The notes under the pieces were generated by a model. That model ran no database searches. It had not been told where the DNA came from and saw nothing but the letters and a program-made list of their open reading frames with translations. A stretch of DNA of 64,000 bases from Escherichia coli (GTDB lineage Bacteria > Pseudomonadota > Gammaproteobacteria > Enterobacterales > Enterobacteriaceae), in NCBI RefSeq assembly GCF_030384885.1, contig NZ_CP128613.1; one strand, given 5' to 3'. Positions 7,215-13,149 of the stretch are shown here, one piece after another. The position numbers were made by a program, and so were the translations under genes. Positions within the stretch are counted from its first letter, which is position 1. Every line of letters begins with the position of its first letter.

Positions 7215-8072
7215 TTAAAGCGTCCTGAATACCAGTAACAACAAGCAAGCAAAGACCGGTACCGCAGCCGTCAGACTATCAATACGATCTAAAATACCAC
7301 CGTGTCCTGGAATTAAATGACCGCTGTCCTTAATTCCTGCTTCACGCTTAAACATACTCTCGGTCAGATCGCCGAGTACTGAGGCTAACGCTGCGACAAT
7401 AGAGCAAATGAGTAAGGTGACGGGAGCGACGTCGAGATTCGCCCACATGCCATAACCCCATGAGATTACCGCTGCAGTCGCGAGTCCACCGATAAAGCCT
7501 TGCCAGGTTTTACCCGGAGAAACCTTCGGTGCCAGCTTATGTTTACCAAACAATTTGCCAAACATATATGCGCCAGAGTCAGCGCCCCATACCAGGATCA
7601 TGACATAGAGCAGCCATATTGCGCCACTGTAATGATTCTCGTCGTAGTGCCAGGCCCGTAACGCCAGCATGCCCCAGAAGAAGGGAACAATGGTTAGCAC
7701 GCCAAAAATAATGCGCAATGTTTTAGAGTTACGCCAGATTGCTGCGGAACCTGGGTAAAACAGCACCAGCAATAGCGCGACAATCCACCAACCCAGCGAA
7801 GCCCAAAGTGAGATTTCAACCAGCGGTTGATGAATATTTCGGTGATATTCCGGCAACAGAAAAAGCATCAGCGCCAACAATAACCCACATAACACCGCCA
7901 ACCATACTCGCTGCGAGCGAGTGGTAAAACCGCTAAGCTGTCCCCATTCCCACGCTGCCAGCATGCAGACCACCAGCGTTACAATGGCGAACCCCACCGG
8001 CGGCAACAGAAACAATGCCGCGATGACGACGGGTATTAACACAAAAGCAGATATCAGGCGATACTTCAGCAA
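7215..8072 (-). CDS. cdsA: CDP-diglyceride synthase (phosphatidate cytidylyltransferase)
   Basis: Track ORF 285 aa, polytopic membrane protein [23 protein letters not shown]...; synteny uppS-cdsA-rseP. Confidence 0.9.
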
Positions 8073-8084
8073 AAGCGACCCCCA

Positions 8085-8846
8085 TCAGGCTGTTTCATCA
8101 CCGGGCTCGGTGCCGCCGAAACGACGCTCTCGATTAGCAAAGGCATTTAACGCCCCTTCAAAGTCTTGTTCATCGAAATCGGGCCAGAGAACATCTGTAA
8201 AGTAAAGTTCGGCATAGGCAATTTGCCAAAGCAAAAAGTTACTAATGCGATGCTCCCCCCCAGTCCTAATTACTAAATCTACAGGGGCCAGTTCATGCAT
8301 ACAGACATGCTGGTTTAGCATCTCTTCATCTATCTGATCTGGTTGCAGGTTTCCTTGCTGCACCTTTTCAGCCAGTTGCCTGACTCCCTGGACTATATCC
8401 CAACGTCCACCGTAGTTCGCCGCAATATTCAGCGTTAGACCGGTATTTCCGGCTGTTAGCGCTTCCGATTTACGAATACGTTCTTGCAAACGCGAGTTAA
8501 AGCGACTGGTATCGCCAATAATACGCAGACGTACGTTATGTCGGTGCAGACTCTTTACTTCGCTATCAAGCGCCCACACAAACAGTTCCATTAACGCACT
8601 GACTTCCTGCGCTGGTCGGTTCCAGTTTTCACTACTAAAGGCATACAGAGTTAACGCCTCAATACCGTTGTTGGCCGCAAAAGAGACAGCCCGGCGGACG
8701 GATTTTGCCCCGGCTTTATGCCCAAAGGCACGAATCTTCCCTTGCTTTTTTGCCCAGCGACCATTGCCGTCCATAATGATCGCAACATGACGACAGCCAT
8801 GCGCTGGCAATTTTTCGCTAAGTGGTTGAGTAGCAGACAACATCAC
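8085..8846 (-). CDS. uppS: Undecaprenyl pyrophosphate synthase
   Basis: Track ORF 253 aa, HVAIIMDGNGRWAKKQGK cis-prenyltransferase signature; synteny. Confidence 0.95.
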   Translation of the reverse strand: MMLSATQPLSEKLPAHGCRHVAIIMDGNGRWAKKQGKIRAFGHKAGAKSVRRAVSFAANNGIEALTLYAFSSENWNRPAQEVSALMELFVWALDSEVKSLHRHNVRLRIIGDTSRFNSRLQERIRKSEALTAGNTGLTLNIAANYGGRWDIVQGVRQLAEKVQQGNLQPDQIDEEMLNQHVCMHELAPVDLVIRTGGEHRISNFLLWQIAYAELYFTDVLWPDFDEQDFEGALNAFANRERRFGGTEPGDETA

Positions 8847-9031
8847 GCGTTTCTTATTCCCTGACAGGGTTTACGGTACTCAGGAATACTGAAGCCTATA
8901 CAAAAAAAAGCCGTGTAAAACCACGGCATACCTGACCTTATAAAGCCAACTACTTATGGTCAGATGGCGCAGACTATATCACTGAAGCCCTACGCTAACA
9001 AATAGCACGACTCTCTGTAGCCGGATTATCC

Positions 9032-10228
9032 TCAGCTTGCGAGACGCATCACCTCTTTTCTGGCGACTTCACGCGCGTTCGCATCAACAGATAACACATC
9101 GTCCACACATTGTGGTTCGCGCATATCCATTTTTTCCAGTACGGATAAATTCAACGCGGCGATATCCGTAAAGCGGATTTGTTGCGCAAGAAAAGCAGCA
9201 ACGGTGATTTCGTTTGCGGCATTCAATGCTGTCGTCGCTGCCTGGCCTTGTTCGAACGCCTCCATCGCCAGTTTCAGGCATGGATAACGATCATAATCCG
9301 GTGCGGCAAATGTCAACGCACTGAGTTTGCAAAAATCGAGCGGCTTCACACCAGAGTTCACGCGATTCGGCCAGGCCATGGTGTGGGCAATTGGCGTACG
9401 CATATCCGGTTCACCCAACTGCGCCAGAACACTGCCGTCCTGATAACGCACCATTGAGTGAATCACTGACTGCGGATGAATCAGCACTTCCATCTGGCTG
9501 GCACTGGCGTTAAACAACCAACGCGCTTCAATGTATTCCAGACCTTTGTTCATCATGGTAGCCGAATCGACAGAAATTTTACGCCCCATCGACCAGTTCG
9601 GATGACGGCAGGCTTGATCCGGCGTCATTGTTGCCAAATCGCGCAATGGCGTCTCACGGAAAGGGCCACCAGACCCGGTAAGCAAAATGGACACCACGCC
9701 ATTTTGCTCAAGGTCAGCGTATCCCAGATTATGCTGGATAGGTTGCGGTAAACTCTGAAAAATGGCGTTATGTTCGCTATCGACTGGTAACAATTGCGCT
9801 TTACTCTGCTTTACGGCGTCCATAAACAGACGTCCGCAAGTGACCAGTGATTCTTTATTGGCCAGCAAAATGGTTTTACCCGCGCGGATCGCAGCAAGCG
9901 TAGGCAACAGGCCAGCTGCGCCAACAATAGCTGCCATCACCTGATCAACATCTTCAAGTGCTGCCATATCACAAGCTGCCTGCTGACCACTTAAGACTTC
10001 GGTGCGGCTACCCTGTTGCTGTAGCATCGTTTTAAGAAGTTTCGCACTCGCTTCATCGTCCATTACGGCATAGCGGGGAGAGAATTCCAGGCACTGCTCT
10101 ACCATGCGAGTGACATTTTTGCCTGCCACCAGCGCAACTACGCGGAAGTGTTCGGGATTATGGCGCACCACGTCCAGCGTGCTGCAACCAATCGAGCCGG
10201 TCGAGCCCAGAATGGTGAGTTGCTTCAT
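9032..10228 (-). CDS. dxr: 1-deoxy-D-xylulose 5-phosphate reductoisomerase
   Basis: Track ORF 398 aa, [39 protein letters not shown]; synteny frr-dxr-uppS. Confidence 0.95.
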
Positions 10229-10261
10229 GAAACATCCAGAGTTGAGACAGAATAAAAAGCA

Positions 10262-10306
10262 AAACGCCGCCAGCCGATCCGCAAGGATCTACTGAGCGGC
10301 GTTTTT
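10262..10306 (-). terminator. Terminator-like structure after frr (nested hairpins, U-tracts on both strands)
   Basis: AACGCCGC ... GCGGCGTT outer stem enclosing GATCC-gcaa-GGATC; TTTTT on + side and TTGCTTTTT on - side. Confidence 0.45.
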
Positions 10307-10319
10307 GTCGTTCAAGAAA

Positions 10320-10877
10320 TCAGAACTGCATCAGTTCTGCTTCTTTGTCTGCCAGCGCCGCTTCAATTTTCTTGATTGCAGCATCAGTCAGTTTCTGTAC
10401 ATCGTCCTGAGAACGGCGATCGTCGTCTTCGCTGATCTCTTTATCTTTCAACAGTGCTTTCACTTTGTCGTTCGCGTCACGACGCACGTTACGTACTGCA
10501 ACACGCGCTTGTTCTGCTTCACCACGAACAATTTTGGTCAGATCTTTACGACGTTCTTCCGTCAGCGGCGGCAGCGGAACACGGATGTCGCTACCCGCAG
10601 AGTTCGGGTTCAGGCCAAGATCGGACGCCATAATCGCTTTTTCAACGGCCGGAGACATTGAACGATCAAACACGTTGATTTTCAGAGTACGGGAATCTTC
10701 TACCGTTACGCTTGCCAGCTGACGCAGCGGCGTCGGCGTGCCGTAATATTCCACGACAATGCCATCCAGCAGGCTGGGAGAAGCACGACCCGTGCGTATT
10801 TTGCTGATTTGGGTTTTGAACGCTTCTACGCATTTGTCCATGCGTACTTCAGCATCTTTTCTGATATCGCTAATCAC
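10320..10877 (-). CDS. frr: Ribosome recycling factor
   Basis: Track ORF 185 aa, [40 protein letters not shown]; synteny pyrH-frr. Confidence 0.95.
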
Positions 10878-11168
10878 GTTACGAATCCTTGAAAACTTGT
10901 CTCAGTCAGACCAGACAGTCACACACAGTGGAAGTGTGCTAAGTATAGCCCTGATTAAACATATTACGGGTAATCGTCTGGATTATTAGGCTATTTTATT
11001 TGCCATTTTGGCCCCGGGCAGTGCTCGCCATCCTCACGTACTTGTGTACGCTCCGGTTGCTGCGCGCTGGCCGTGACCAAACTGCCTGCAACAATAACGC
11101 CTTATAACCAGACTTACGCCCCCGCGATACTTACGCGGAATCTTACCCTTATTTATCCATCACGGGAA

Positions 11169-11894
11169 TTATTCCGTGATTAAAGTCCCTTCTTTTTCAC
11201 CCATTACCACACGGCGCAGCGCACCCGGTTTGTTCATGTTGAAAACACGAATCGGTAATTTATGGTCACGAGCCAGCGTGAAGGCCGCCAGGTCCATGAC
11301 TTTCAGCTCTTTTTCCAGCACTTCGCTGTAAGTCAGTTGCTCGTACATGGTTGCGGTTGGATCTTTCGCCGGATCAGCGGTAAACACGCCGTCAACTTTG
11401 GTTGCTTTCAGCACCACATCAGCTTCAATTTCGATACCACGCAGGCAAGCTGCTGAGTCGGTGGTAAAGAACGGGTTACCTGTACCGGCGGAGAAGATCA
11501 CCACACGGTTGTTGCGCAACAGGCTGATAGCTTCTGCCCAGCTGTAGCTGTCGCACACGCCATTCAATGGAATAGCGGACATCAGACGAGCGTTCACATA
11601 GGCGCGGTGCAGTGCATCACGCATTGCCAGGCCGTTCATTACGGTCGCCAGCATCCCCATGTGGTCGCCCACAACGCGGTTCATACCCGCTTTCGCCAGA
11701 CCAGCGCCACGGAACAGGTTACCCCCACCAATCACCACACCAACCTGAATACCCAGTTCAACCAGTTCTTTGATTTCCTGAGCCATGCGATCCAGTATGC
11801 TTGCATCAATACCGAAGCCTTCCGTGCCCTGCAGAGCTTCGCCACTCAACTTAAGCAGAATGCGTTTATAGACGGGTTTTGCATTGGTAGCCAT
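11169..11894 (-). CDS. pyrH: Uridylate (UMP) kinase
   Basis: Track ORF 241 aa, [23 protein letters not shown]...; synteny tsf-pyrH. Confidence 0.95.
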
Positions 11895-12040: not shown

Positions 12041-12892
12041 TTAAGACTGCTTGGACATCGCAGCAACTTCTGCTGCAAAGTCAGTCTCAACTTTCTCGAT
12101 GCCTTCACCCACTTCGAAGCGGATGAAGCCAGTCACTTCAGCGTTATGCTCTTTCAGCAGCTGACCAACAGTTTTGCTTGGTTCCATAACGAACGGCTGA
12201 CCGGTCAGAGAAACTTCGCCGGTGAATTTCTTCATGCGGCCTTCAACCATTTTCTCTGCGATTTCTTTCGGCTTACCAGACTGCATCGCGATATCCAGCT
12301 GTACCTGGTATTCTTTTTCTACCACTTCAGCGGATACATCTTCTGGTTTGATGAATTCTGGTTTGCTTGCAGCAACGTGCATAGCGATGTGTTTAACCAG
12401 CTCTTCGTCAGCGCCTTTAGCAGCAACCAGAACGCCGATACGCGCACCGTGCTGATAAGAACCCAGAACGTCGCCTTCCAGCGCAGCAACGCGGCGAATG
12501 TTGATGTTTTCACCAATTTTCGCTACCAGCGCAACACGTTCTTCTTCGAACTGTGCTTTCAGAACTTCAACGTCAGTGATTTTGCCAGCAACAGCTGCGT
12601 CCAGAACTTTGTCTGCGAACGCCTGGAAACCAGCGTCTTTTGCAACGAAGTCAGTCTGGCAGTTAACTTCCAGAATGATGCCGTAGTTGCCGTCGATTTT
12701 GGTTTTGATCACGCCGTCAGCAGCAACGTTGCCTGCTTTTTTCGCTGCTTTAATAGCACCGGACTTACGCATGTTTTCGATTGCCAGCTCGATGTCGCCG
12801 TTAGCTTCAGTCAGTGCTTTTTTGCAATCCATCATGCCTGCGCCAGTACGCTCACGCAGCTCTTTTACCAGGGATGCGGTAATTTCAGCCAT
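12041..12892 (-). CDS. tsf: Elongation factor Ts
   Basis: Track ORF 283 aa, [45 protein letters not shown]; downstream of rpsB. Confidence 0.95.
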
Positions 12893-13149
12893 TCTAAAAT
12901 CCTCGGAGATGTGATCTGCCCGGCATTAAACCGCACAGATATAAAAGTGAAAAAGGGGGCCATATGCAGGCCCCCTAACCAAACGTGTACTACCTGGTCT
13001 ATAAGGGCTCTCCCCCTTCATATTTCGCGCCGCAGATGCGTTGTCTTCGCTCGCTCATCCCGGTCACTTACTGATGTAAGTTCCCGGGAATTCTCGAGCT
13101 TGCCGCCTTTCTGCAACTCGAACTATTTTGGGGGAGTTATCAAGCCTTA

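Follow-up and report, generated by a model that had tools for sequence, protein, structure and literature searches.

The hairpin between frr and dxr of Escherichia coli is very probably a leaky intrinsic terminator of frr

The spacer that separates frr, the gene for ribosome-recycling factor, from dxr in Escherichia coli contains a sequence able to fold into a long hairpin, which raises the question of what such a structure does at the boundary between the two genes. The first-pass annotation of the window (the whole 64,000-nt stretch of DNA analysed here) had described it as a nested hairpin that could terminate frr transcripts, and might also act as an attenuator, an RNase target or a protein-binding site ahead of dxr. 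The product of dxr catalyses the first committed step of the MEP isoprenoid pathway. Our analysis indicates that the hairpin is very probably a Rho-independent (i.e., intrinsic) and leaky terminator of frr. This terminator is already known, being on record with its 3' ends mapped and its read-through published, and it is ordinary in kind.

As for the setting, dxr is indeed co-directional with frr and immediately downstream of it, as had been proposed. As the two genes lie on the window's minus strand, the RNA that matters biologically is the reverse complement of the plus-strand letters. All the motifs previously described at 10262-10306 in the spacer were found on the plus strand where they had been placed (Table 1). 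The spacer shows 100% identity, base for base, to that of E. coli K-12 MG1655, and transcript experiments performed in K-12 therefore apply to the window, positions being converted as K-12 = 193429 + (10320 - window). The 801 bp around the hairpin have matches in 5424 of 5426 complete E. coli genomes, with strain 2013C-4282 being 100% identical, while the hairpin element occurs in one place per genome, at 99% identity or more in 5345 of these 5424. Over 4.5 kb, the window and K-12 differ at 57 positions, none of which is in the spacer, but this is uninformative about any excess conservation because only ~1 difference would be expected in 91 nt. Counted by gene, there are 27 differences in dxr (2.3%), five in pyrH (0.69%) and two in frr (0.36%). 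Divergence from K-12 is locally higher in dxr and in the spacer between dxr and ispU, which might be due to recombination, and the segment 9900-10700 is at least 99% identical to the window in only 9 of the 5424 genomes.

Table 1. Genes of the region and parts of the frr-dxr hairpin, in window coordinates
Feature	Position	Strand	Description
tsf	12892..12041	minus	ORF; name from K-12 annotation
pyrH	11894..11169	minus	ORF; name from K-12 annotation
frr CDS	10877..10320	minus	ORF; named as in identical or near-identical E. coli records
frr-dxr spacer	10229..10319		91 nt
A-tract AAAAA	10302..10306	minus	just 5' of the G+C stem; adds A-U pairs to the stem
T-run TTTTT	10302-10306	plus
Terminator hairpin	10261..10305	minus	~19 bp interrupted by one bulge and one 1x1 mismatch; loop of 4 nt at 10284..10281
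Outer stem arms	10263-10270 and 10296-10303	plus (letters)	AACGCCGC pairs with GCGGCGTT
Inner stem	10276-10280, 10281-10284, 10285-10289	plus (letters)	GATCC, gcaa, GGATC
A-runs	10261-10264 and 10254-10258	plus (letters)	U-runs on the minus strand
U-tract UUUUGCUUUUUAUU	10251..10264	minus	adjoins the stem base; 11 U in 14 nt
dxr (ispC) CDS	10228..9032	minus	ORF; name from K-12 annotation
ispU	8846..8085	minus	ORF; name from K-12 annotation
cdsA	8072..7215	minus	ORF; name from K-12 annotation

From the frr stop codon to the dxr start codon, the spacer mRNA reads UGA-uuucuugaacgac-AAAAACGCCGC-U-CAGU-A-GAUCC-uugc-GGAUC-G-GCUG-GCGGCGUUUU-GCUUUUUAUUcugucucaacucuggauguuuc-AUG, in which the hairpin corresponds to AAAACGCCGC-U-CAGU-A-GAUCC-uugc-GGAUC-G-GCUG-GCGGCGUUUU. 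The hairpin shares the strand of frr; its 5' side begins 14 nt past the stop codon of that gene, and its 3' end is 32 nt ahead of the dxr ATG. The earlier view of a nested hairpin is correct in that an outer and an inner stem both exist, but they do not form two hairpins. The CAGU and GCUG segments between the two stems pair as well, which makes the whole a single extended hairpin, irregular only at a 1-nt bulged U and one A/G 1x1 mismatch. The apex of the E. coli structure, GAUCC-uugc-GGAUC, which had been singled out as an inner hairpin, is a lineage-specific stem top. At the opposite end, the stem base beside the U-tract consists of six pairs, all of which are G-C, while the first four U of the tract are able to pair with the upstream A-run. 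T-runs flank the hairpin on both strands as described, UUUUGCUUUUUAUU on the sense strand and UUUUUGUCGUU after the hairpin on the plus strand, the source of the latter being the A-tract. A-tracts are a standard although optional part of intrinsic terminators, in which they are common and raise the efficiency of termination in the sense direction (PMC4824070; bioRxiv 10.64898/2026.07.06.736697). The U-tract on the opposite strand is a by-product of this stem-extending A-tract, and an antisense role is only putative here.

The sense strand folds in ViennaRNA with an energy of -28.7 to -30.4 kcal/mol (z -6.1 to -6.6), which none of 200 dinucleotide shuffles could equal. Owing to its interrupted stem, the element escaped a simple terminator scan, but it was recovered with a custom hairpin-plus-T-tract finder. 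When scored in this way, as a hairpin abutting a T-tract, it reached -26.6 kcal/mol, against -19.4 for the best of 200 shuffles made from the 110 nt downstream of the frr stop codon. The hairpin is confirmed as a feature beyond chance. A second hairpin was seen at 10313-10347 on the minus strand, spanning the last frr codons and the stop codon, and ending 7 nt before the terminator hairpin. Its arms CAAAGAAGCAGAACUG and CAGUUCUGAUUUCUUG, 16 nt each, are 81% complementary. The core of this second structure (GAACUG/CAGUUC) derives from the E-L-M-Q-F codons and is lost in species where Frr ends in ELMDF or ELMEF, while its extension into the spacer is found only in E. coli.

Far from running through the structure without a 3' end, frr transcripts of K-12 do have ends mapped there. 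The evidence comes from SMRT-Cappable-seq, in which full-length primary transcripts are sequenced, and which lists frr ends in its Supplementary Data 1 (PMC6131387). The 3' ends of frr transcripts are at K-12 193490/193491, corresponding to positions 10259/10258 of the window, within the U-tract and 6-7 nt past the last G-C pair. In M9 medium, 475 reads start at the frr start site 192616, of which 284 end at 193491, 17 end in the next 50 bp and 72 pass through, with a median extension of 930 nt (PMC6131387). In rich medium, 556 reads share this start site, with 222 ending at 193490, 254 ending in the next 50 bp and 30 passing through, with a median extension of 1306 nt (PMC6131387). Both rows carry the label "terminator," assigned to b0172 with a centre at 193470 (PMC6131387, Supplementary Data 1), which is position 10279 of the window, beside the hairpin loop. 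This label means that the authors of that study recognised in the site a terminator recorded earlier. The claim that the hairpin terminates frr transcripts is thus borne out, both by the K-12 3' ends in the U-tract and by the cataloguing of the site as the frr terminator. Calculated from the published counts, read-through from frr towards dxr is 19.3% in M9 versus 5.9% in rich medium (Fisher p about 1e-9), the two values being derived from two separate size-selected long-read libraries. The frr terminator (19349x) is absent from the thresholded Term-seq tables of eLife 62438, an absence that the cut-offs may explain, and it was not found in the TERMITe supplements. The Term-seq ends listed in eLife 62438 are 192871 (position 10878 of the window, just ahead of the frr start codon), 192996 (position 10753, ~124 nt inside frr) and 194843.

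These observations are consistent with the following mechanism. RNA polymerase would transcribe frr on the minus strand of the window, and the nascent RNA would fold into a G+C-rich hairpin of ~19 bp, the base of which abuts the U-tract. Because the rU:dA hybrid is weak, most complexes would release the transcript 6-7 nt past the last G-C pair, in a process that we take to be independent of Rho. Termination would be incomplete, at ~81% in M9 and 94% in rich medium, and the polymerases escaping it would proceed into dxr, ispU and cdsA. The locus has what characterizes intrinsic terminators: a stable G+C stem, a U-tract 3' of it, a position at the end of a unit on the sense strand, and in vivo ends in the U-tract. 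In addition, the structure is kept in relatives despite sequence change.

Conservation was assessed on 80 gammaproteobacterial loci, obtained by a Frr protein scan with one genome per species. A hairpin with a T-tract (at -12 kcal/mol or lower, no more than 110 nt from the end of the frr coding sequence) is present 3' of frr in 76% of these loci, versus 8.5% of 480 dinucleotide shuffles, and several of the loci in the remaining 24% carry one slightly farther downstream. The terminator after frr is conserved whichever gene comes next, be it dxr (as in Enterobacterales) or another. Among the 80 loci, Enterobacterales are the only ones in which dxr is the gene directly 3' of frr, the spacers measuring 90-442 nt. 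Vibrionales, Alteromonadales and others have dxr ~1.7 kb downstream of frr, and the terminator stays with frr. When 20 Enterobacterales species (mostly Enterobacteriaceae and Erwiniaceae) were aligned, the arms ACGCCG/CGGCGUUUU were invariant in all 20. The seventh pair is never broken, being C-G in 3 species, U-G in 12 and U-A in 5. The interior of the hairpin varies in both sequence and length, with 25-37 nt between the arms, and bulge positions differ between genera. Since MAFFT/RNAalifold aligned the apex in a register that does not match the real E. coli pairs, each sequence was folded on its own, and the diverged interiors beat their own shuffles in 18 of 20 species (mean z -3.2). A covariation count for the outer stem in these 20 species gave no statistical signal. 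Five pairs never vary, two deviate solely where a cell is unpaired, and in one the changes are confined to a single side; the outer stem being invariant in the aligned group, a formal covariation test is without power. More distant orders have different complementary arms, e.g., AGCGUCGC/GCGGCGCU and GCGCUGUGC/GCACAGCGC.

A distinct feature was noticed in Alteromonadales. The frr terminator carries a TATACT motif in its loop and 3' arm in all of 17 sequences, which come from this order (Shewanella, Pseudoalteromonas, Aliidiomarina and Psychrobium) and one unclassified gammaproteobacterial MAG, 20-200 nt past the frr stop codon (loci L043, L046-L050, L052-L055, L057, L060, L062, L069, L071, L075 and L081 of alignment A3). 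It is preceded, 16-18 nt upstream, by TAGAGT, TTAGTT or TTGGAG. Judged from these motifs, the arrangement looks like a candidate promoter of the next gene embedded in the frr terminator. A promoter scan calls TGGAGA-16-TATACT in Aliidiomarina, but makes no such call in Shewanella. This terminator-embedded TATACT has no equivalent in E. coli.

Could the mapped 3' ends have another origin, and could the hairpin have another role? If it were mainly a 3' stabiliser or processing stop, the RNA would end farther downstream and nucleases would trim it back to the hairpin. A hairpin of -29 kcal/mol would block 3'-to-5' exonucleases, 254 reads from rich medium end in the 50 bp past the called site, and the long-read method does not select for 3'-end chemistry, its capture of 5' ends being no proof of termination. 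However, the mapped ends are where an intrinsic site is expected, in a canonical U-tract shortly past the last G-C pair, which makes termination far more likely than processing. Moreover, the read-through RNAs extend by a median of 930-1306 nt, into dxr, without a second cluster of ends just downstream, and it is the combination of hairpin and U-tract, not the hairpin alone, that is conserved after frr. We therefore infer that the ends result from termination rather than trimming, and consider it very unlikely that the hairpin is chiefly a processing stop, although terminating and stabilising roles are not mutually exclusive. As an RNase target, another possibility raised at the outset, a stem of ~19 bp with a bulge and a mismatch is borderline for RNase III, which needs about two turns of near-perfect dsRNA. 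The symmetry of the element also invites the idea that it works in both directions, stopping antisense transcripts that come through dxr towards frr. The plus-strand hairpin folds at -26.9 to -29.2 kcal/mol (z -5.4 to -6.5, with 0 of 200 dinucleotide shuffles as good) and is followed by UUUUUGUCGUU, and terminators with an A-tract can work both ways (PMC4824070). A U-tract is thus present on each strand, but transcript ends on both strands are not: the SMRT-Cappable-seq tables contain no reverse-strand site at K-12 19342x-19347x, although a single data set is weak evidence. The plus strand is without a promoter-like site over 8861-11239, the flanking genes are co-directional rather than convergent, and the A-tract is accounted for by its effect on the sense terminator, all of which makes a functional bidirectional terminator distinctly unlikely.

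A regulated attenuator, in which ribosome position, an antiterminator, a ligand or a protein would tune formation of the hairpin and hence dxr, would offer an explanation for the threefold difference in read-through between media. The proximity of the stop codon is compatible with this, as in a reporter system a trailing ribosome made termination less efficient over distances reaching about 27 nt (PMC4824070); with the hairpin at 14 nt, ribosome proximity may add to the leak. There is also a GCGGCG in Ala-Ala-Leu codons of frr that could pair with the 5' arm CGCCGC. This candidate antiterminator was rejected. Folding the last 80 nt of frr together with the spacer gave MFE and centroid structures that retain the terminator and lack this pairing, and in species with the ACGCCG arm its synonymous positions vary (GCA GCA, GCT GCA or GCC GCA). 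A scan of 8800-11200 against Rfam at permissive E-values returned chance-level matches only, the best for the hairpin being 20 bits to rnk_pseudo against a gathering score of 55. As for the difference between media, it comes from separate libraries and its direction is opposite to that expected from a simple ribosome-proximity model. With neither a conserved alternative structure nor an Rfam match, the attenuator proposed ahead of dxr found no support, and we regard it as unlikely. A protein-binding site fared no better, since apex sequence and arm spacing vary between genera. More generally, the inverted repeat might act as DNA, either as an operator palindrome for a dxr regulator, as a Dam/SeqA pair of GATC sites (10276-10279 and 10286-10289) or as a REP/BIME. 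The last was rejected, because many copies per genome are required and one was found in each of the 5424 E. coli genomes, which means no repeat family. GATC occurs in the hairpin interior in only 1 of the 19 other aligned species, and the variable distance between the invariant arms among genera is incompatible with a fixed dimer-binding site; this lack of conservation in GATC pair and spacing argues against an operator or SeqA site. Furthermore, a palindrome with GATC in one arm automatically has GATC in the other. A DNA-level element is accordingly hardly credible, and the reading that we retain is that of a leaky intrinsic terminator.

How does this terminator compare with known systems? 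The frr terminator on record in K-12 is the same element in another E. coli strain, with an identical spacer and the same centre. Like canonical Rho-independent terminators (e.g., lambda tR2, PMC4824070), it has a G+C stem leading onto a U-tract, with an optional A-tract, lies within a few tens of nt of a stop codon and has its 3' ends in the U-tract. In contrast to these, its stem exceeds the usual length and carries a bulge as well as a mismatch, and its U-tract is broken by GC after four U. Leaky termination between co-directional genes, giving rise to operon variants, has been described for prs-dauA and dapA-bamC (PMC6131387), where, as at frr, partial read-through brings downstream genes into the transcript, to an extent that is not the same in M9 as in rich medium. 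Read-through is modest at the frr terminator (6-19%) compared with prs-dauA (46-91%, PMC6131387). In the case of dapA-bamC, deletion of a predicted attenuator structure showed that it matters (PMC6131387), whereas none was found at frr. The bidirectional can/hpt terminator (PMC6131387, Fig. 2d) resembles the frr element in being a symmetric hairpin flanked by an A-tract and a U-tract, but it is located between convergent genes, while frr and dxr are co-directional with no antisense 3' end recorded. The long, conserved three-part stem, together with the apparent dependence of dxr on the leak, makes the frr terminator mildly notable.

Other signals are present in the same gene string. Just upstream of tsf, at 12954-12976 on the minus strand, there is a strong hairpin, AGGGGGCC-ugcauau-GGCCCCCU followed by UUUUUCACUUU, which corresponds to the K-12 3' end 190800, where 906 of 1340 M9 transcripts read through. 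It is another leaky terminator in the string to which frr belongs. The dxr-ispU spacer (8905-9001, minus strand) harbours the annotated small RNA IspZ (K-12 194784-194844). On the same strand, TTGTTA-17-TGnTATAGT at 9001..8973 resembles a promoter, and GCCGTGG-uuuuac-CACGGC with a T8 run after it, at 8927..8910, forms a strong terminator. A strong Term-seq 3' end has been reported in the IspZ region at 194843 (eLife 62438), and ispU-cdsA operons from 194783 (PMC6131387).

An important implication of the leak concerns dxr. The frr gene, a showcase of transcriptional contexts in PMC6131387, is represented there by the transcripts frr, frr-dxr-ispU, frr-dxr-ispU-cdsA, pyrH-frr-dxr and tsf-pyrH-frr-dxr (Fig. 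3b). Among the rows listed in Supplementary Data 2 of that study, b0173 (dxr) is mentioned at least 14 times in at least seven operon rows, all of which start upstream of frr, at 190794, 191734, 191811, 192616 or 192813. The next independent start after those is 194783, ahead of ispU (PMC6131387). It follows that, within the sensitivity of these data, dxr transcripts have passed the hairpin, and the suggestion that termination efficiency here sets dxr transcription is upheld by a K-12 read-through of 6-19% together with operons that all start upstream of frr. A literature search for a dxr promoter, and for ProQ or Hfq bound to the 3' end of frr, yielded nothing specific. In E. coli, dxr thus appears to have no promoter of its own, although a weak one could escape long-read data. 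With no transcription start seen from the frr promoters to dxr, the terminator would act as a fixed step-down valve, keeping frr mRNA abundant and dxr mRNA scarce. A bolder version, which we think improbable, is that the terminator is a growth-responsive valve and the sole transcriptional entry to dxr, set by how closely ribosomes finishing frr trail the polymerase. If true, the supply of isoprenoids and undecaprenyl phosphate would be tied, via dxr, to translational status.

Since dxr appears to be transcribed only by polymerases that escape the terminator, edits of the frr-dxr spacer or insertions of promoters ahead of dxr, an essential gene that is the target of fosmidomycin and a common target of metabolic engineering, should take the hairpin into account. 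Beyond E. coli, a terminator after frr has been kept from Enterobacterales to Vibrionales and Alteromonadales, which suggests that a step-down in expression between frr and the lipid/isoprenoid genes that follow is an old and maintained feature.
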